Shown: piece after piece, positions 17,701-40,046 of the stretch
How positions within the stretch are numbered: the stretch's first letter is position 1
Layout: every line of letters starts with the position of its first letter
Assembly (NCBI GenBank): GCA_035554335.1
Contig: DATMIG010000191.1
Coordinates: 1-40,046, forward strand
Origin: Burkholderiales bacterium
Lineage (GTDB): Bacteria; Pseudomonadota; Gammaproteobacteria; Burkholderiales; SG8-39
Length of the DNA stretch: 40,046 nt
Direction of reading: 5' to 3'
Program-made: the position numbers and the translations under genes
Notes under the pieces: model-generated
What the model was told of the DNA's origin: nothing
The model's database searches: none
The model's input: only the letters and a program-made list of their open reading frames with translations

Positions 17701-18275
17701 AGACGCTGAACGCGACCTTCTACGCGTACGGCCAGAAGCTGCAGGTCGACCCGGGCATCGTCATCTTCGACGGCCCGCCCGACAACCCGGCGCTGCAGAT
17801 CACCGCCTGGCGCCGCAACCAGGCCGTCGAGGCCGGCGTGCAGATCAGCGGCACGGTGCGCGCCCCGCGTGTCCAGCTCGTGTCGCAACCACCGGTCTCG
17901 GAAGGCGAACGCCTGTCGTGGCTGGTTCTCGGGCGAGCACCCACTGACGCTACAAAGGCCGATCTCGGCCTGTTGCAGGCCGCGGCGGGTGCGCTTCTGT
18001 CGCGCGGCGACTCCCTGCCGCTCGACCGACGCATCGCGCGCAGCTTCGGCCTGGACGAAATCAGCTTCCGCGGCTCGGGCCAGACGCAGGACAGCGTCGT
18101 GGCCGTCGGCAAGCGCTTCTCCGACAAGCTCTATCTCAGCTACGAGCAGGGCATCGGTACGGTGGCCTCCAGCCTGGTGAAGCTCGACTACGCCCTGTCG
18201 CGGCGCTGGTCGGCGCGGATCGAGACCGGCACCTCGACCGGCGGCGGCATCTTCTATCGCTTCTCGTGGGACTAG
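14757..18275 (+). CDS. tamB: Translocation and assembly module inner-membrane protein TamB (DUF490)
   Basis: About 1172 aa. It has an N-terminal signal anchor (ALLLAAAVGFICWLFA), a long beta-rich body, and a DUF490-type C-terminus (VAVGKRFSDKLYLSYEQGIG...IETGTSTGGGIFYRFSWD). The start is uncertain; see the finding on this gene. Confidence 0.85.
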   Translation: MALLLAAAVGFICWLFATEPGLQWALRQAEQRSGGKLAFEGVRGTLANIVEIERVRFDSGGTVVEARGVAGHGHLAAALGGRLVVEPLRIASLDIAMTPDDKPTPASPVALPFGIRLGELQLDRLHIQLPGATYEFANLRFDHVGLNAPSGVSAQGSFEFQHDQYPVAASLTLGGTLEELNLHLKGTAAGIPADVRGLVTPSRPQKVKSAEVRAGPLDLAQLNAELPHAELELALRATGTAKGFAGTLEATNKTAGPLDRQRLPLARAQTTFSTDLQSFELEKLQVMLAGGGTLEGRGVASASGFEGEVKASRLNLRGLRSDLRETALSGPLELSLGREVQTVRGTLSQPGMSVTAEVARKGDDIDIRRLHAAAEGGEVSGSGKVRLGEPIGFDAKLALSGFNPAAFGDYPAAAISGTVAGKGNYGKDIRADVEWSLADSNLYGEPLHTNGKARVAGKRVLDANADATLADTHATIRGAFGGAGDRLAWTLEAPKLEEHVEGMSGRLKASGSLGGTWENPSLVLEAQGEELEFPHGLKASRANAEFAGTATRHAAQILLRVEGTDIQARLAGSFKGGQWTGDILALEGNGRVPFVLRAPAPLKASRQRVELGYVAASVGDGRLLVKELLWSKERVASVGEFSGLPAQWLITALGQSAHLRSTLLLDGQWEIAAAPTLSGTLSVRRTAGDLTIVGENELELGLQGISLDARFAAAGVGVRLDVASSYASGTLAGQIGRDPDAGALTLGKNSPLSAQGQIELAHAKLVAEPFLADSRFDGRIGADVEISGTLADPVFAGALRGDAIAFDYPPLGIYLKNGQFRARLAGDALQVESLSIQAGSGTFTASGTLPLRLAEGSNARLTWQARHFALLERPDMRIITSGEGDATFDGQRLAFSGELRVERGHIQYDTQRVPKLGDDVVVAGEKRPTARARSALPVDLNLDLDLGSNLTIAMQGLEGKLGGRVNVSTTKEGELRLYGRLQTLNATFYAYGQKLQVDPGIVIFDGPPDNPALQITAWRRNQAVEAGVQISGTVRAPRVQLVSQPPVSEGERLSWLVLGRAPTDATKADLGLLQAAAGALLSRGDSLPLDRRIARSFGLDEISFRGSGQTQDSVVAVGKRFSDKLYLSYEQGIGTVASSLVKLDYALSRRWSARIETGTSTGGGIFYRFSWD

Positions 18276-18288
18276 TCCGGTCGGACTA
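18273..18288. promoter_or_regulatory. Perfect palindrome TAGTCC-GGTC-GGACTA upstream of RNA gene A (candidate operator)
   Basis: 16-bp inverted repeat that overlaps the tamB stop codon. The same half-sites recur at 19476..19491 upstream of RNA gene B. Confidence 0.4.
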
Positions 18289-18357
18289 TGAAAAAAGCGC
18301 GGCGCAAGTCGGATGGGACATAGCGGCGGACCGGGATCCGTCGCATGATGCTGACCT

Positions 18358-18541
18358 GTGTAGGACGTCACCTACACGGGACTGGATGAGCGGCCATCAC
18401 GAAGTTACCAGTGCCGTCCGAGAGACCGACTCGAAGGTGGAGCCGGTCCACGGTAGCGCCAAACTCTGTGTAGTCGCCGTCTGATTCGCCAAAGCAGTGG
18501 CAGCACCGGAGGGCACGTCTAGCGGACGCGCCCTCTTTTTT
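18358..18541 (+). ncRNA. Candidate small RNA, copy A of a paralogous pair (family not recognised)
   Basis: It opens with a 5' hairpin, GTGTAGG (18358..18364) pairing with CCTACAC (18371..18377). It ends in an intrinsic terminator, GAGGGCACG (18509..18517) pairing with CGCGCCCTC (18527..18535), plus T6. It aligns end to end with 19540..19727. No + strand gene lies downstream. A -10-like CATGAT sits at 18344..18349. Confidence 0.6.
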
Positions 18542-18622
18542 CGTCCACCGCTGTTAGGAATTGTGCAGGAGCGCGGGCGCGCGCGATATCGCCGCACGCC
18601 GCGTCATATTGTCGCCGCCCGT

Positions 18623-18835
18623 TTACAGCTTGCGGCTGAACGGTCCGCTCGCCACCAGGTCGAGCGCCTTCATGTAAATGCGGGTCGGCGGCTTGCCGCG
18701 GCCCTTCAACCAGTGCGCGATTTCTTCTTCCGAGGCGCCGAGGTATTCGGCCAGCTGCCGCAGGCTGCCGATGGTGGAAAGCGCCAGAGCCAGAGTACGG
18801 GTCACCGAGTTCTCTACCGCAGCCTGCATGGGCAT
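18623..18835 (-). CDS. Small putative HTH DNA-binding protein (70 aa)
   Basis: From ATG 18835: MPMQAAVENSVTRTLALALSTIGSLRQLAEYLGASEEEIAHWLKGRGKPPTRIYMKALDLVASGPFSRKL. The segment SLRQLAEYLGASEEEIAHWLKG looks like a helix-turn-helix. The ORF opens at 18907, and the family is not recognised. Confidence 0.5.
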   Translation of the reverse strand: MPMQAAVENSVTRTLALALSTIGSLRQLAEYLGASEEEIAHWLKGRGKPPTRIYMKALDLVASGPFSRKL

Positions 18836-18978
18836 CACCTTGCAGGGGATTAGAAAGTCTCGGCGCCCCCGCCGCAGTGACCGATTGCCCTCCAGACTGT
18901 GCGCCATTGCCGCCTCGGCGGAAGGCGCTGCTCGTCACATCGGTGTCATGGCCGAGTCGCAAATCGACCCGGGTTCCT

Positions 18979-19413
18979 TCAGGCGGCGTTCAGGGCTTTA
19001 TCGTCGTGGTCGATGCCGGCGGCCGCGTACAGGCGCTCCTGCGAGCGCAGGACCCGCTCGACGAGCTCGATGAGGCGCGGCGCGAGGAAAGGCTTCACCA
19101 GGCAGGCCGAGCCGAGCGCCTCGGCGTGGCTGCGCAGGTCGGAGCGGCCGGTCATGAAGATCACCGGCACCCAGGGCATCGCGGAGTCGGCGATCAGCGC
19201 GGAGACGAAGTCCAGGCCGCTCACGTACGGCATGTGCGCGTCGACGATCATCAGGTCGGGCTTCTCGTCGCGCACGCGCTGCGCGGCGCGGCGTGCGCTC
19301 TCGGCGAGGACCACGCGGTAGCCGGCGTCCTCGAGCTGGAGCCTCAGGAGCTCGCGAATCGGCTGCTCGTCGTCGACGACAAGGATGGTGCGGTGGCGGC
19401 TCTGTTCTTTCAT
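18979..19413 (-). CDS. Orphan single-domain response regulator (REC only)
   Basis: 144 aa with acidic pocket VVDDE, phospho-acceptor D in LMIVDAHMP, T in FMTG, and K in LVKPF. A strong SD (GAGGAGGAGG) lies upstream. There is no output domain and no histidine kinase gene in the window. Confidence 0.85.
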   Translation of the reverse strand: MKEQSRHRTILVVDDEQPIRELLRLQLEDAGYRVVLAESARRAAQRVRDEKPDLMIVDAHMPYVSGLDFVSALIADSAMPWVPVIFMTGRSDLRSHAEALGSACLVKPFLAPRLIELVERVLRSQERLYAAAGIDHDDKALNAA

Positions 19414-19475
19414 GGTTTGCCTCCTCCTCGGGCGAGATTCTCGTCCCGCGGGGCTTCCCGACGGCAGGGACCGGC

Positions 19476-19491
19476 TAGTCCTGACGGACTA
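19476..19491. promoter_or_regulatory. Perfect palindrome TAGTCC-TGAC-GGACTA upstream of RNA gene B (candidate operator)
   Basis: Same half-sites as 18273..18288, located in the response regulator / RNA B intergenic region. Confidence 0.4.
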
Positions 19492-19539
19492 ACGGGTAAA
19501 ACCGACAGAGCACGAGGCGAGCGTCGTACGATACCGACC

Positions 19540-19727
19540 GTGCTGTAGGACATGACTGACACAGCACGGGAAGCGCGGCCAGCACGGTGTTAGCAGCGCC
19601 ATCCGAGAGACCGATTCGGCGTTGAACCGGTCCACGGTAGCGCCAAACAGGGTGTAGTCGCCGTCCGACTCGCCAAAGCAGTGGTCATACCGGAGGGCAC
19701 ATCTAGCGGGTGTGCCCTCTTTTTTTT
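19540..19727 (+). ncRNA. Candidate small RNA, copy B of the paralogous pair
   Basis: It opens with a 5' hairpin, GTGCTGT (19540..19546) pairing with ACAGCAC (19561..19567). It ends in a perfect terminator, GAGGGCACA (19693..19701) pairing with TGTGCCCTC (19711..19719), plus T8. Long identical blocks are shared with copy A. A -10-like TACGAT sits at 19527..19532. Confidence 0.6.
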
Positions 19728-19868
19728 CTCGACCGCCCGCGCATTGTGCCGGCGGGCCGGCGCCGCCGCTATCGCCGGCGCTGGAATTGTCGTGTAGCTA
19801 AGCCTTGGAAAAAACGCGTGGAGTCCTGTCGACGTCGCGGCAGGGCGTCGCGACAGAAGAACTACGCG

Positions 19869-20435
19869 CTACCGCGTGGTGGTCTTGCGGATTTCCTTCT
19901 CGTCGGACCACTCGAGCAGCCCGTTGCGGATGTTCCACAGCTGCAGGTTGAACTTGTAGTACACGTCCTTCGTGTTCTTCACCTCCTTCACGATGGAGGT
20001 GATGTTGCCTTCCATGCGGTACTGGGCGCCGACCATCTGGCCCTTCTCGACCGCGTGCTCCTTGGCGTAATACTCCGACTGCTGGCGCTTGATCTCGTCC
20101 ACCTGCTGCGTCATGCCGGGCGCGTCGACGGCGAAGCGCACCCGGCCGCCTTTCTGCAGCTCGGCGCGGATGGAGTCGGTGATCGAGCGCGTGTCGATGT
20201 ATTCGCTCGTCTTGTTCCGCACTTCCTGCACCGTGACGATCGGCAGGTTGCCGCTCGCGATCACCGGCGCCTGCTGCATCGAGCGCGCCATCGACTCGGC
20301 GATCATCTGCAGGTCGGTCGAGCCGAACTGGTTGGTGACCGTCTCGACGCCGCGCGCATCGCCGTAGCTCGTTTTCTCGTGCGCGCACCCCGCCGCCAGT
20401 GTGGCGAGGGCGGCGGCCAGCAAGAGTTTCTTCAT
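19869..20435 (-). CDS. lpoB: LpoB-like outer-membrane lipoprotein (COG3417-type)
   Basis: 188 aa with lipobox LAAGC. The sequence pattern is typical of LpoB-family proteins as I remember them (IVTVQEVRNKTSEYIDTRSITDSIRAEL...YRMEGNITSI...YKFNLQLWNIRNG). A ycfL-like gene lies next to it. Confidence 0.65.
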   Translation of the reverse strand: MKKLLLAAALATLAAGCAHEKTSYGDARGVETVTNQFGSTDLQMIAESMARSMQQAPVIASGNLPIVTVQEVRNKTSEYIDTRSITDSIRAELQKGGRVRFAVDAPGMTQQVDEIKRQQSEYYAKEHAVEKGQMVGAQYRMEGNITSIVKEVKNTKDVYYKFNLQLWNIRNGLLEWSDEKEIRKTTTR

Positions 20436-33216: not shown

Positions 33217-34662
33217 CTAATGCAGCCCCGTGCAAAAGCGGCCGACGTAGGGCAGGAGCTTCTCGGCGAAGGCCTTCGCCTCGGCATTGGCGGCCCGCAG
33301 ACGCACCATCGCCTCTTCGGCCTCGCGCCGCAGCTTTTCCACGTCCACGCCCAGGACCTTGCGATCGCGCACGATGAAACGGCCGCCCGCCATCACGTGC
33401 TCGACGCCGGTACCGTCCTCGCCGAACACGATCTGCTGCGCGAGGTCGTTGAGCGGCACGTAATGCAGCGCGGACAGGTCGAGGAAGACGAGGTCGGCCT
33501 TCCAGCCCTTTTCGATGCGCCCGATGCGGTCGAAGCCGAGCGCCTTCGCGCCGCCCTCGGTGGCCGCATGGAACGCCTCGCGCGCGCTGATCCATTCGCC
33601 GACCGAATGATCCTTGACGCGCGAGAGGTAGCACGCGAGCCGCATCGCCTCGAACGCGTTCAGGTTGTCGGAGCACGCCGTGCCGTCCGTGCCGACCGCC
33701 ACGTTGATCCCGGCCGCCAGCATGCGCCGCATGTCGGCGACGCCGGAACCCAGCTTCAGGTTGCTGCCCGGGTTGTGCGACACCGAAGCGCCGGCGTCGG
33801 CCAGGCGCTGGCGATCCTCGTCGCCCAGCCACACGCCGTGCGCCACGCAGAAGCCGGGGCTCAGCATCTCCAGCTTCGCAAGGTGCGCGACGAGCGAATG
33901 GCCATACACCTTCGGCGCGATGATCGACTGCATCTTCGATTCGGCCACGTGCATCTGCATGCCGAGGCCGTGCTCGCGCGCGAGATCGCGGCACTCGCGC
34001 AGGAATTCGTCCGAGCAGTGGTGCGGGATGCTGGGCCCGAGCGCGGGCTTCACCTGCTCGCGCGGATGCCGCCAGGCCGCCAATATCTTCCGGCAGGCCT
34101 CGATCGACTGCTCGTGCGGCGCCGCTTTCGCTTTCAGCGCTTCGCTTCTCAGCGGCTCGGGCAGCGCGTCCGCGAGACCGGGGACCGCCTCCCAGTAGCT
34201 CTTGTCCGTGATCTGCGGCGCGATCACCGCGCGCAGTCCGACCTTCGCATAGGCCTCGGCCACCGCCGCCATGCCTTCGACCGTCGGCAGCGGAAATTCC
34301 GCGAACATGTCGTACGCCGCGGTGCAGCCCTTGCGCGCCATCTCCGCCGCGCCAAGCGTGGCCGAGAGGGCCTTGTCTTCCAGCGTGCGGCGGCCGGTCG
34401 ACCACGGCACGGCCGTGAGATAGAGCTCCAGGTTGTAGCGGTCGAAAAGACCTTTGGCCAGGTTGGCGGTGGCATGGTTGTGCCCGTTGACGAGCCCCGG
34501 CATCAGCGCGCGCCCGGTCGCGTCGACGCGTTCCATGCCGTCGCCTTTCACGCTGCCCGGTGCAACGAGGTCCTTGATCGTGTCGCCCTCGACGATCACG
34601 TCGAGCGCCTCCGCGGCGAACGTCTTCGGCCGCACCACCTTCGCGCCATGGATGAGGATCAT
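33217..34662 (-). CDS. Amidohydrolase-superfamily protein (COG0402 chlorohydrolase/aminohydrolase-like; substrate unknown)
   Basis: 481 aa starting MILIHGAKVV, with the HxH metal motif LVNGHNH and motifs MHVAES and AVGTDG. Confidence 0.85.
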   Translation of the reverse strand: MILIHGAKVVRPKTFAAEALDVIVEGDTIKDLVAPGSVKGDGMERVDATGRALMPGLVNGHNHATANLAKGLFDRYNLELYLTAVPWSTGRRTLEDKALSATLGAAEMARKGCTAAYDMFAEFPLPTVEGMAAVAEAYAKVGLRAVIAPQITDKSYWEAVPGLADALPEPLRSEALKAKAAPHEQSIEACRKILAAWRHPREQVKPALGPSIPHHCSDEFLRECRDLAREHGLGMQMHVAESKMQSIIAPKVYGHSLVAHLAKLEMLSPGFCVAHGVWLGDEDRQRLADAGASVSHNPGSNLKLGSGVADMRRMLAAGINVAVGTDGTACSDNLNAFEAMRLACYLSRVKDHSVGEWISAREAFHAATEGGAKALGFDRIGRIEKGWKADLVFLDLSALHYVPLNDLAQQIVFGEDGTGVEHVMAGGRFIVRDRKVLGVDVEKLRREAEEAMVRLRAANAEAKAFAEKLLPYVGRFCTGLH

Positions 34663-34670
34663 GGCGGGAG

Positions 34671-34676
34671 ATTATC
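34671..34676 (-). promoter_or_regulatory. -10-like GATAAT placed 8 nt before the amidohydrolase ATG (possible leaderless promoter)
   Basis: Minus strand: TTTTTGTC-GATAAT-CTCCCGCC-ATG. There is no SD. The arrangement parallels 28008..28029. Confidence 0.25.
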
Positions 34677-34679
34677 GAC

Positions 34680-34865
34680 AAAAAGAAGCCGCCCGAAGGC
34701 GGCTGTCCAAGGGGTTGAGCCAGGTCCTAGGGAGTGCGGACGTTGGCTCCAGGGAGGAGGACTGCATTGTGCAAATCCGCGGCCGCGCTGTCTGTCACCC
34801 GGCTTTGGCTTTTGGGGTCCGAAACCGTTCGACAGGAAAATCCCCGACAGGGAAAATCCGTGCTG
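34680..34865 (-). ncRNA. CU-rich structured element C2, paralog of C1 (sRNA or leader upstream of the amidohydrolase gene)
   Basis: On the minus strand it carries two GGATTTTCC(C)TGTCG repeats (34830..34859) and a CTGTC/GACAG helix. It also has UCCUCCUCCCUGG (34749..34761) and a CUCCCUAGG loop (34726..34734). The terminator is AGCCGCC-TTCG-GGCGGCT plus TCTTTTTG (34680..34704), 24 of 25 nt identical to the C1 terminator. Confidence 0.5.
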
Positions 34866-34879
34866 ACCGCACTCCTGTA

Positions 34880-36619
34880 ATGCCTCTCCTTACGCTCCAG
34901 AACGCCGAGCTCGCCTTTGGCGACCTCCCGCTCCTCGACCGGGCCTCGTTCGCCCTCGAGGAGCGCGAGCGCATCGGGCTCATCGGGCGTAACGGCACCG
35001 GGAAATCGTCGCTGCTCGCCGTGCTCGCCGGCACGCGCATGCTCGACGACGGCGAGCTGAGGAAAACGGACGGGCTGCGCATCGTCTTCGTGCCGCAGGA
35101 GCCGGCCTTTCCCGCCGACACGCCGGCGCCCGCGCACAAGCTCGAGGAATTCTTCCACCGCCTGGGCATCGATCTCGAGCTCGATCCGGCGAAGGCGTCG
35201 GGCGGCGAGCGCAAGCGCGCGGCGCTCGCCGCCGCCTTTGCGCAGGAGCCGGACGTGCTGCTCCTCGACGAGCCGACCAACCACCTCGACATCGACGGCA
35301 TCGTCGCGCTGGAGAATCTCCTCGTGCGGCAGCCGGCGGCGATCTTCGTCACGCACGACCGCGCCTTTCTCGACCGCGTGGCGACGCGCATCCTCGAGCT
35401 CGACCGCGGGCGCCTCGTTTCCTTTCCCGGCAACTTTTCCGCCTATGAGCAGCGCAAGCGCGAGCAGCTCGCCGTCGAGGCCGTCGTGCATGCGAAGTTC
35501 GACAAGTTCTGGGCGCAGGAAGAAGCCTGGATCCGCAAGGGCATCGAGGCCCGGCGCACGCGCAACGAAGGCCGCGTGCGGCGCCTCGAGCGCCTGCGCG
35601 ACGAGCGCGCGGCGCGGCGCGAGCGCGCCGGGAACATCAGGCTCGCCATCGGCGAAGGGCAGCGCTCCGGAAAGCTGGTGGCCGAGCTCACCGAGGTGGC
35701 GAAGTCATTCGGTGGTCGCACGCTCATCCAGGGCCTCGACCTGATCGTCTCGCGCGGCGACCGCATCGGCCTCATCGGGCCCAACGGCGCCGGCAAGACC
35801 ACGCTCATCAAGCTGATCCTCGGCGAGCTCGCGCCCGACGCCGGGCGGGTGCGCATCGGCGCCAACGTGGCGCCGGCCTACTTCGACCAGCTGCGCGAAG
35901 TGCTGGACGAGGAAAAGACGGTCGCCGAAACGATCAGCCCCGGCTCCGAATGGGTCGACCTGACATCGGGCCGCAAGCACGTGATGAGCTATCTCGGCGA
36001 CTTCCTCTTCCCGCCGCGCCGCGCGAATTCGAAGGTCGCGATGCTCTCCGGCGGCGAGCGCAACCGCCTGCTGCTCGCGCGCCTCTTCTCGCGTCCGGCC
36101 AACGTGCTGGTGCTCGACGAGCCGACCAACGACCTCGACATCGAGTCGCTCGAGCTCCTCGAAACCGCGCTGCAGGACTATGCCGGCACGCTGCTCCTCG
36201 TCAGCCACGACCGCGCTTTCCTCGACAACGTGGTGACGCAGACGCTGGCCGCGCAAGGCGATGGCGTGTGGAAGGAGTACGCGGGCGGGTATAGCGATTA
36301 TGTGCAGCAGTCGCAAAATCAACCCCCCGCTCGCAAAGACAGCTCGCCTCCCCCCGCGGCGGGCGGGCGGCCGGAAAAGGCGCGCACAAAACTGAGCTAC
36401 AAGGAAACGCGGGAGCTGGAAGCGCTGCCGAAAGAAATCGAGACGCTCGAAGAAGAGCAGAAGCAGATCCAGGCGCGCATGCACGCCGCCGACTACTACA
36501 AGCAGCCGCCGGACATCCTGCGCGCGGATCGCGACCGCGAGGCCGAGATCGCGCGGCTGATCGACGACAAACTGGAGCGCTGGGCGGCGCTGGAGGAGAA
36601 AGCCAAACCGCCGGCGTGA
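34880..36619 (+). CDS. uup: ABC-F family ATPase, Uup-like (C-terminal coiled-coil tail)
   Basis: 579 aa from ATG 34880. It has two NBDs, with Walker A motifs GRNGTGKSS and GPNGAGKTT. SGGE signatures are present, along with LLLDEPTNHLD and LVLDEPTNDLD. The ABC-F linker reads FWAQEEAWIRKGIEARRTRNEGR. The C-terminus is charged and helical. Confidence 0.85.
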   Translation: MPLLTLQNAELAFGDLPLLDRASFALEERERIGLIGRNGTGKSSLLAVLAGTRMLDDGELRKTDGLRIVFVPQEPAFPADTPAPAHKLEEFFHRLGIDLELDPAKASGGERKRAALAAAFAQEPDVLLLDEPTNHLDIDGIVALENLLVRQPAAIFVTHDRAFLDRVATRILELDRGRLVSFPGNFSAYEQRKREQLAVEAVVHAKFDKFWAQEEAWIRKGIEARRTRNEGRVRRLERLRDERAARRERAGNIRLAIGEGQRSGKLVAELTEVAKSFGGRTLIQGLDLIVSRGDRIGLIGPNGAGKTTLIKLILGELAPDAGRVRIGANVAPAYFDQLREVLDEEKTVAETISPGSEWVDLTSGRKHVMSYLGDFLFPPRRANSKVAMLSGGERNRLLLARLFSRPANVLVLDEPTNDLDIESLELLETALQDYAGTLLLVSHDRAFLDNVVTQTLAAQGDGVWKEYAGGYSDYVQQSQNQPPARKDSSPPPAAGGRPEKARTKLSYKETRELEALPKEIETLEEEQKQIQARMHAADYYKQPPDILRADRDREAEIARLIDDKLERWAALEEKAKPPA

Positions 36620-39352: not shown

Positions 39353-39553
39353 CTACTCGTCTACCAGCTCGGCCTTCTCGAACTTTGCCTGCGCGAAAGC
39401 GCGCAGCTGGGAAATCGCATCGACCACCTTCGTCCCGTATGCGGGCGCGAACTCGATCACCTTCGAACCGTCGACCACGTCGTCCTGCCTGAGGCAGATG
39501 TAGCCGTTGTCGGCGACGAACACTTCGATATCGGACTGCCCCCGGATGCGCAT
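39353..39553 (-). CDS. Small protein (66 aa), paralog of the partial gene at 39861..40046
   Basis: ATG 39553 is preceded by a strong SD AAGGAGG. Sequence: MRIRGQSDIEVFVADNGYICLRQDDVVDGSKVIEFAPAYGTKVVDAISQLRAFAQAKFEKAELVDE. The track start at 39715 is an extension. Confidence 0.6.
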   Translation of the reverse strand: MRIRGQSDIEVFVADNGYICLRQDDVVDGSKVIEFAPAYGTKVVDAISQLRAFAQAKFEKAELVDE

Positions 39554-39706
39554 TGCGGTGTTGCCTCCTTGCGAGAACCGAATCGTAGGTCGCGCGCCCG
39601 CACGATTCGTCGAAGCGCAAGTATCCCGGGTGGATGAGTCTCGAAGGGGCGACGTCGGAAATGCCTCTCGCGCATATACTGGCGGCCGCAAAAGAAAGGG
39701 ACCGCC

Positions 39707-39860: not shown

Positions 39861-40046
39861 CTCATTCGTCGATCAGCTCGGCTTTCTCGAATTTCGCCTG
39901 CGCGAACTGCTGCAGGCTGGCGATGGCGCCGGCCACCTTCTGGCCGTAGGCGGGCGCAAACTCGATCGTCTTCTCTCCGTCGACCGTGTCGGTCTGCTTG
40001 AGGCAGATGTAGCCCTCTTCGGAGATGAAGATCTGGATGTCGGGCT
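39861..40046 (-). CDS. Small protein paralog, C-terminal 61 codons (start just beyond the right edge)
   Basis: Own reverse translation: ...PDIQIFISEEGYICLKQTDTVDGEKTIEFAPAYGQKVAGAIASLQQFAQAKFEKAELIDE*. By my count, 40 of 60 aligned residues are identical to 39353..39553. Confidence 0.6.

Follow-up and report, generated by a model that had tools for sequence, protein, structure and literature searches.

Several of the described systems closest to the locus analyzed here combine one regulator with several related small RNAs (sRNAs). In Enterobacterales, a single two-component system controls both GlmY and GlmZ, one of the two genes lies beside the regulator operon, and one sibling is a non-pairing decoy for the protein RapZ. 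RNAs of the Rsm/Csr type sequester a protein, and they contain many GGA motifs in their hairpin loops. We analyzed a stretch of 40,046 nucleotides (nt), hereafter the window, from contig DATMIG010000191.1 of a Burkholderiales bacterium (assembly GCA_035554335.1). A preliminary description of this DNA, made without database searches, had noticed two look-alike RNA genes on either side of a response regulator (RR) gene and a gene for a small helix-turn-helix (HTH) protein. Comparative analysis supports the prediction that the two elements, which we call RNA-A and RNA-B, are genes of an uncatalogued family of structured small RNAs of about 190 nt in uncultured soil Burkholderiales. To our knowledge, no member of the lineage concerned has been cultured, and no sRNA has been described from it.

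The likeness of RNA-A and RNA-B is far beyond chance. The two paralogues are about 80-86% identical, and a MAFFT alignment of positions 18330-18560 with 19510-19745 gives a mean column identity of 86% and contains all five identical blocks that had originally been quoted. A repeat finder independently lists the copies as D3 (105 nt, 86%) and D8 (75 nt, 79%). The starts assigned by our covariance model (Table 1) precede those first proposed by 8 nt in RNA-A and by 7 nt in RNA-B. As had been described, each copy begins with a hairpin, here called P1, whose sequence differs between the copies, although the hairpin is in fact longer in both. Each copy ends in a G+C-rich hairpin followed by T6 (RNA-A) or T8 (RNA-B), as expected of an intrinsic terminator. 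The terminator of RNA-B was picked up directly by a terminator scan (13 pairs, T8), and that of RNA-A appears as a hairpin plus U6 in the minimum free energy fold. The exchange of a G-C pair for an A-U pair that had been pointed out in the terminator stem is real and recurs among homologues, where this pair is GC in 89 cases and AU in 16. It is also correct that no plus-strand gene follows either copy, as the genes downstream, encoding the HTH protein and LpoB, are both on the minus strand. Both copies hold the same syntenic positions in every related contig that has sufficient flanking sequence.

Homologues were sought in genomes and metagenomes, and the resulting loci are numbered in the form L010. 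A scan of species-representative genomes with an invariant 20-mer found 20 real loci, plus one more in a metagenome-assembled genome (MAG) labeled 'Myxococcota'. Among the 20, 17 carry labels of uncultured Burkholderiales or Betaproteobacteria (all MAGs except for one single-cell genome), and the other three lie on contigs labeled 'Enterobacteriaceae', a label that looks misassigned. Among the 23 hits of the 20-mer in genomes, three (L011 and L013 in Lichenihabitans and L029 in Comamonas) were set aside as chance matches, because the similarity is confined to the 20-mer itself. A gapped-pattern search of metagenomes recovered at least 120 soil contigs, and a profile built from all matches yielded 178 hits distributed over at least 148 loci, which come from metagenomes of soil and from MAGs of Burkholderiales. 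The family had been presented as a pair, but there are in fact several copies per genome: several MAGs contain three copies each, on separate contigs, and this number is a lower bound. We consider the homology of these copies to be established.

Some of these loci deserve separate mention. The copies in L016, L026 and L031 (CAYZFN01; 'uncultured Enterobacteriaceae') and in L028 (DASUFZ01; 'Myxococcota') are genuine and have lpoB or RR neighbors; it is the labels or the binning of these contigs that look wrong. Direct tandem copies about 250 nt apart occur in L116 (901-1533), L140 (2257-2885), L143 (2627-3257) and L148 (6917-7547), and neither an HTH nor an RR gene is close to any of these four loci. 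In the short variants L090:6278-6438, L067:1359-1526 and L047:1-224, CGGTAGCGCCAAAC, GTAGTCGC and the terminator are kept, in this order, and the apical half of the rod described below is missing; these variants probably arose by deletion at the A-type position. The L090 remnant begins with a TGGTCCGG-N6-CCGGACCA hairpin, which resembles the operator half-sites discussed below.

The statement that the RNA belongs to no named family was borne out by searches with Rfam 15, which gave no match at the gathering score, either in the window or across a diverse set of 20 homologous loci, and no hit overlapping either copy at E<=10. A weak hit to Rfam RT-19 on the minus strand (18679-18775; 28 bits, with the gathering score at 78.3) falls within the coding sequence of the HTH protein and was taken as chance. 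A search for a tRNA- or tmRNA-like element found none. The literature that we consulted on the operator half-sites, on sibling sRNAs of Betaproteobacteria and on sRNAs of Burkholderiales contained nothing relevant.

Conserved secondary structure supports the view that the elements are RNA genes. Each window copy is predicted to fold more stably than shuffled versions of itself, with z-scores near -3 (Table 1). Based on an alignment of 32 copies made from sequence only, RNAalifold predicted a long hairpin over most of the RNA, plus the terminator, with 7 compensatory pairs. The covariance-model alignment, which took in 120 matches, has 98.5% of its cells paired and 15 of 37 pairs compensatory, with at least one such pair in every helix; these values are biased towards the first structure, to which the alignment was fitted. 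None of 500 shuffles reached the observed values of pairing and covariation, and controls in which the partner strand was slid were only 35-55% paired. The terminator stem covaries in 7 of its 13 pairs. Three helices outside the model can be added, namely the core of P1, a CAC/GUG helix and a closing helix, in which the segment after P1 pairs with the supposed linker CGUCUG. With these, 25 of 52 proposed pairs are compensatory. P1 can be formed by 92 distinct 5' segments, the median number of pairs being 12.

The fold common to the family, which we regard as established, consists of P1, a rod and the terminator, in this order. The rod is 100-130 nt long; its helices covary, its small internal loops are constant, and its tip is variable and covaries. 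Within the RNA, invariance is highest along the 3' strand of the rod, and the terminator loop CUAGCGG is invariant across the family. In averaged pairing probabilities, we observed no conserved unpaired run longer than about 4 bases. The pentamer UAGCG occurs three times, in the terminator loop CUAGCGG, in the rod 3' strand (GGUAGCGCC, 18445-18453) and in the upstream DNA as CATAGCG; the last of these is located about 38 nt upstream of A-type copies.

It is important to consider whether the elements might instead encode peptides. The apical hairpin at the rod tip varies in length from 12 to 38 nt, with all three classes modulo 3 represented, and no frame anchored on the invariant core is open in more than 43 of 112 sequences. 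Coding was thus rejected for both strands, given the lack of a conserved frame and the distribution of tip lengths. Together with the covarying pairs, these results support the earlier proposal that the elements are predicted genes for structured non-coding RNAs and not for peptides.

The strongest regulatory signal is a conserved palindromic operator upstream of each copy, which the preliminary description overlooked. This 16-bp palindrome, TAGTCC-N4-GGACTA, has only two matches in the window, even when two mismatches are allowed, and one lies before each RNA. The center of operator A is 69 nt before the end of a -10-like hexamer, while that of operator B is 49 nt before the end of the corresponding hexamer and precedes the start codon of the RR gene by 70 nt. 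The strict palindrome precedes 127 of 157 copies. When up to two mismatches are tolerated, 133 of 139 unique upstream regions contain it, compared to 3 of 2000 shuffles. The association is also specific: within the approximately 780 kb of DNA that we fetched, 127 of 132 strict palindromes are associated with the RNA, and the exceptions, five in all, are found at the ends of contigs, beside a truncated copy, or before the RR gene of L010, a locus that has retained the palindrome there despite lacking RNA-B.

The operator occurs at preferred distances. From its center to the RNA start given by the model, the distances fall into the classes -25, -36/37, -47/48, -58/59 and -69, for which the best period is about 11 bp (vector strength R=0.83). 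We consider the operator and its phasing, like the homology and the structure, to be established. In 71% of 136 unique promoters, the start of the RNA is immediately preceded by a hexamer of the form.A..AT. A scan with a strict sigma-70 consensus found no full promoter in the region, which is consistent with a promoter that depends on a factor. Similarly, the best matches to a sigma-54 consensus (TGGCAC-N5-TTGCA) in 136 upstream regions were no better than those in shuffles, and -35/-10 elements of the extracytoplasmic function (ECF) type, judged by eye, were rejected for unsuitable spacing. The data fit a weak promoter that would require the binding of a factor to one helix face.

Two further observations concern the position of the operator. 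The stop codon of tamB, TAG (18273-18275), is also the first triplet of operator A, and in loci where the RNA adjoins a gene for a Lon-N-domain protein (L035, L073, L092, L150 and others) the upstream gene likewise stops at the first triplet of the palindrome. The -25 class forms a divergent subfamily (L035, L039, L057, L073, L078, L092, L105, L119, L124, L125 and L150).

The HTH protein is the constant neighbor of the family and, judged by its neighborhood, the shared divergent promoter and its fold, the likely regulator that binds the palindrome. By sequence, it matches the Pfam family YdaS_toxin (PF15943) at 22.4 bits, below the 30-bit cut-off, and its 64 homologues are all metagenomic. An AlphaFold model has four helices, with a predicted local distance difference test (pLDDT) score of 85.1. 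Foldseek matches of this model include Aca7, Aca1, P2 C, HipB, C.AhdI and SinR; the first five have query-normalised TM scores (TMq) of 0.57-0.75 and probabilities of 0.99-1.0, with E-values of about 0.1-0.4 only, the HTH domain being small. The proteins thus matched are small XRE-type dimers that bind short palindromes. In its predicted structure, the 70-amino acid (aa) protein accordingly has an HTH fold of the XRE/Cro-cI type, and DNA binding is predicted. The RR matches PF00072 (E 7.8e-22, residues 10-118) and has no output domain; its translation contains the residues D13, D14, D58, T88 and K107 expected of a receiver domain.

The order of genes is conserved among relatives, and we take the gene neighborhood as established too. 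Contigs with HTH homologues share the order lpoB, RNA, RR, (EamA transporter), HTH, RNA, tamB. The preliminary description had asked whether the RR/HTH pair co-occurs with the RNA, and the answer differs between the two proteins. The HTH gene is flanked by the RNA in all HTH contigs with long enough flanks (L001-L008; L009 ends 100 nt past the HTH gene). The RR gene is present in most home loci of the family and is missing from loci in which the order is RNA-HTH-RNA, such as L017 and L022. As no gene other than that for the HTH protein was found to separate the two RNAs in L017 and L022, the RR and EamA genes are optional. Some relatives have a gene for a small DUF3606 protein beside the HTH or EamA gene (L008, 1602-1778; L009, 1393-1569), and in L065 (4291-4488) a DUF3606 gene occupies the position expected for the HTH gene.

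RNA sequence clusters follow both gene context and operator distance. A-like copies have their operator at -58/59 and are convergent with the HTH gene, and orthologues of RNA-A adjoin tamB in 8 of the 11 members of the RNA-A cluster. B-like copies have the operator at -47/48, and are divergent from the RR or HTH gene and convergent with lpoB. The copies that we checked are intergenic and mostly convergent with the downstream gene. For 87 copies, both flanks are readable: in 23 the HTH gene is convergent at the 3' side, and the divergent upstream gene encodes the HTH protein in 9 and the RR in 11. Features of the window are listed in Table 1; a DUF1425 gene, also on the minus strand, is additionally found downstream of RNA-B.

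Table 1. Positions of the RNA copies, their control elements and adjacent genes in the 40,046-nt window.
Feature	Position	Strand	Remarks
RNA-A (A-type copy)	18350-18542	+	Covariance model 210.3 bits, E 3.6e-46; fold z-score -3.0
RNA-A, P1	18355-18380	+	CCTGTGTAGG/CCTACACGGG
RNA-A, rod	~18383-18483	+	Variable apical hairpin
RNA-A, terminator	18508-18541	+	Loop UCUAGCGGA
RNA-B (B-type copy)	19533-19726	+	Covariance model 202.1 bits, E 2.6e-44; fold z-score -3.0
RNA-B, P1	19538-19569	+	CCGTGCTGT/ACAGCACGG
RNA-B, rod		+	
RNA-B, terminator	19692-19727	+	
Operator A	18273-18288		Palindrome TAGTCCGGTCGGACTA, exact match to TAGTCC-N4-GGACTA
Operator B	19476-19491		Palindrome TAGTCCTGACGGACTA, exact match; between the divergent RR-HTH operon and RNA-B
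-10-like hexamer, RNA-A	18344-18349	+	CATGAT; consensus nAnnAT
-10-like hexamer, RNA-B	19527-19532	+	TACGAT; commonest hexamer at this position in homologues
HTH protein gene	18623-18832	-	68-70 aa, predicted XRE/Cro fold; convergent with RNA-A; candidate operator-binding factor
RR gene	18979-19413	-	Receiver only, 144 aa; first gene of operon; divergent from RNA-B
tamB	ends at 18275	+	Upstream of RNA-A
lpoB	19869-20435	-	Downstream of RNA-B

Given these observations, we lean, with moderate confidence, towards a system in which a dimer of the HTH protein, with input from the receiver protein, controls a small regulon of these RNAs through the operator, and in which the RNA is slightly favored to act as a fold recognized by a protein. 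Each copy would be a self-contained unit, made up of an operator on one helix face, a weak -10-like hexamer, the 5' hairpin, the rod and the terminator. The home locus of the family is in the window, where RNA-B is divergent from the RR-HTH operon and RNA-A convergent with it. The HTH dimer bound to the operator would control every copy in the genome as well as its own operon, and the receiver protein, where present, would supply a phosphorylation signal. The RNAs, if transcribed as we infer, would be the regulatory output. In the least certain step, the folded RNA may be recognized by a protein partner, as a decoy or sponge in the manner of GlmY-RapZ or RsmY/Z.

The proposed role of the HTH protein draws on the palindrome in the divergent promoter of the HTH operon and its retention in L010. 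As for the RNA, protein recognition is slightly favored over pairing through a seed, because the conserved nucleotides are nearly all within the rod and there is no conserved single-stranded seed. Also in favor of protein recognition are the invariant bulges on both strands of the rod, the invariant terminator loop, the small number of free conserved bases, and the fact that A- and B-type paralogues are kept distinct across genera. GlmY/GlmZ, with its protein decoy, offers the clearest precedent.

Several points weigh against this interpretation. With respect to the factor, 48 of the 87 copies with readable flanks have no adjacent HTH or RR gene, and such orphan copies adjoin unrelated genes, e.g., for SpoT, Der, DctM, TctC and a Lon-N-domain protein, or occur in tandem. 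A globally acting regulator encoded elsewhere might bind the palindrome instead. These orphans also qualify the original suggestion of a module composed of a regulator and its sRNAs: adjacent regulators are indeed shared by relatives, but the constant partner is the HTH protein, the RR is optional, and more than half of the copies lie away from both. With respect to the promoter, the site in the -25 class lies over the expected -35 region, as for a repressor, while the other classes have positions like those of activator sites, so that a single mode of action does not fit all classes. The p-values for the phasing are inflated by the relatedness of the sequences, though five separate classes exist. 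With respect to the RNA, a classical U-tailed terminator is equally typical of Hfq-dependent pairing sRNAs, and the invariance of both rod strands could arise because one strand is a sequestered seed. Moreover, the lineage sampled is narrow, and part of the invariance may reflect short divergence times.

The strongest alternative follows the model of the preliminary description, that of sibling sRNAs with seed regions. The RNAs would then act in trans by pairing with mRNAs in the classical way, probably with the help of Hfq. In this case, the seed would be sequestered in the rod (e.g., GGUAGCGCCAAAC or GUAGUCGCC) or located in a short 5' tail, and would be freed by a chaperone. The terminator with its U tail agrees with such a function, as does the existence of multiple paralogues behind a common operator, which is also a property of Qrr, PrrF and OmrA/B. 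The rod 3' strand, moreover, is not only the most invariant part of the RNA but is also retained in the short variants L090, L067 and L047. However, a conserved unpaired stretch of more than about 4 nt is lacking, and bulges and internal loops that are invariant on both strands would more typically point to recognition by a protein. The candidate seeds originally proposed, two CGCCAAA motifs said to be outside the obvious helices, are not supported: the first motif is inside the rod, within the GCGC/GCGC and AAC/GUU helices, and only UCGCC is conserved of the second, where it abuts the helix that closes the rod. We regard pairing as a tentative alternative that deserves serious attention, but not as the probable one.

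A cis-acting role is far less plausible, and we consider it improbable. The copies might be modules for 3' ends or termination, devices of antisense or convergent transcription acting on the HTH gene and lpoB, or part of the 3' untranslated region of tamB. RNA-A is indeed located 75 nt past tamB on the same strand with no intervening terminator, and it converges on the HTH gene, which is without a minus-strand terminator of its own; B-type copies stay beside lpoB even in distant relatives. However, every copy is preceded by an operator and a -10-like hexamer of its own, also in the unrelated contexts listed above (SpoT, Der, DctM and TctC), tandem copies lie about 250 nt apart, and the same RNA is retained irrespective of the neighboring gene. 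A dispersed repeat or miniature mobile element that mimics a gene, similar to repetitive extragenic palindromes or miniature inverted-repeat transposable elements (REP/MITE-like), is very improbable, since the several dispersed and tandem copies per genome that might suggest it keep A- and B-type syntenic positions across genera, show no terminal inverted repeats in our alignments, have no match in viral contigs or plasmids, and exhibit a directional layout from promoter to terminator with compensatory changes.

Returning to the system controlled by the HTH protein, a more specific version of it can be formulated, which we think unlikely. In this version, the XRE/Cro-type protein and the stand-alone receiver would run a regulon that consists almost solely of three or more copies of the RNA, and A and B types would divide the roles of decoy and effector between them. 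GlmY/GlmZ would be the model for such a division of labor, with one RNA as a protein decoy and the other as the effector. If this version is true, it would constitute an undescribed signaling output based on RNA, possibly tied to cell-envelope biogenesis given the tamAB/lpoB neighborhood, in a soil lineage that is abundant yet uncultured.

If the genes are transcribed as predicted, they represent a new family of regulatory RNAs with its own operator and a candidate regulator. In addition, the operator, present at five phased distances in over 130 natural promoters, provides a data set on how the position of a site relates to promoter function. The near-total pairing and the invariant internal loops suggest a protein partner, and therefore a candidate for a new regulatory pair of RNA and protein.

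Other repeats in the window concern different genes. The direct repeat D2 on the minus strand (39357-39555 and 39866-40046; 181 nt, 75% identity) corresponds to two paralogous minus-strand open reading frames (ORFs) of about 65 aa, the second of which runs past the end of the window. The direct repeats D4/D6 (35085-35387 versus 36038-36239; 75-82% identity) are separated by about 850 nt within a long plus-strand ORF (34454-36619) and are probably an internal domain duplication of one protein.

In its layout, the module resembles Qrr/LuxO, RsmXYZ/GacA and divergent pairs of a regulator and an sRNA, and by the tests that we ran it appears to be a member of none of them. The Qrr1-5/LuxO system of Vibrio reportedly shares with it the presence of scattered homologous sRNA genes, each behind the same regulator palindrome, with one of them transcribed divergently from the regulator operon and with signal input through a receiver domain. 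However, Qrr RNAs are said to be about 100 nt in length, with a long unpaired conserved seed, sigma-54 promoters and an activator of the NtrC type. By contrast, the RNAs of the present family are about 190 nt long and almost fully paired, their upstream regions have no sigma-54 consensus above shuffles, and the HTH protein is a separate, 70-aa protein of the predicted XRE type.

GlmY/GlmZ with GlrK-GlrR of Enterobacterales is similar in that its homologous sRNAs, of about 185-205 nt, form long irregular hairpins followed by a terminator. It is distinguished by its lineage and promoter type, and the RNAs described here, which have no Rfam hit, are similar to it neither in sequence nor by covariance model and are present in more than two copies; we know of no link between this family and RapZ. 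RsmX/Y/Z with GacA in Pseudomonas, of the CsrB type, also have multiple copies and a conserved upstream palindrome for one regulator. Our RNAs, however, have a median of 3 GGA motifs each, and a median of 0 and a maximum of 2 in hairpin loops. Sponging of a Csr-like protein is thus unlikely, because GGA motifs are few and outside loops.

6S RNA, like the present RNAs, is about 185 nt long with a largely double-stranded, rod-like fold. However, our RNAs gave no match to the 6S covariance model, their 5' and 3' ends are not paired with each other, they have a terminator of their own, and they have no large central bubble, the largest internal loop being about 8 nt. A role like that of 6S was therefore rejected, as a fold with a separate 5' hairpin and 3' terminator and with small internal loops is unsuitable for it.

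Finally, OxyR/OxyS, GcvA/GcvB and SgrR/SgrS each consist of an sRNA gene that is divergent from the gene of its own factor, with a binding site in the shared intergenic region, and RNA-B with the RR-HTH operon has this same layout. These sRNAs differ in that they are single-copy, are controlled by regulators of the LysR or SgrR type and have clear pairing regions. Viewed against all of these systems, the locus is a familiar kind of system, represented by a new family in an uncultured lineage and with an unusual degree of structure in its RNA.

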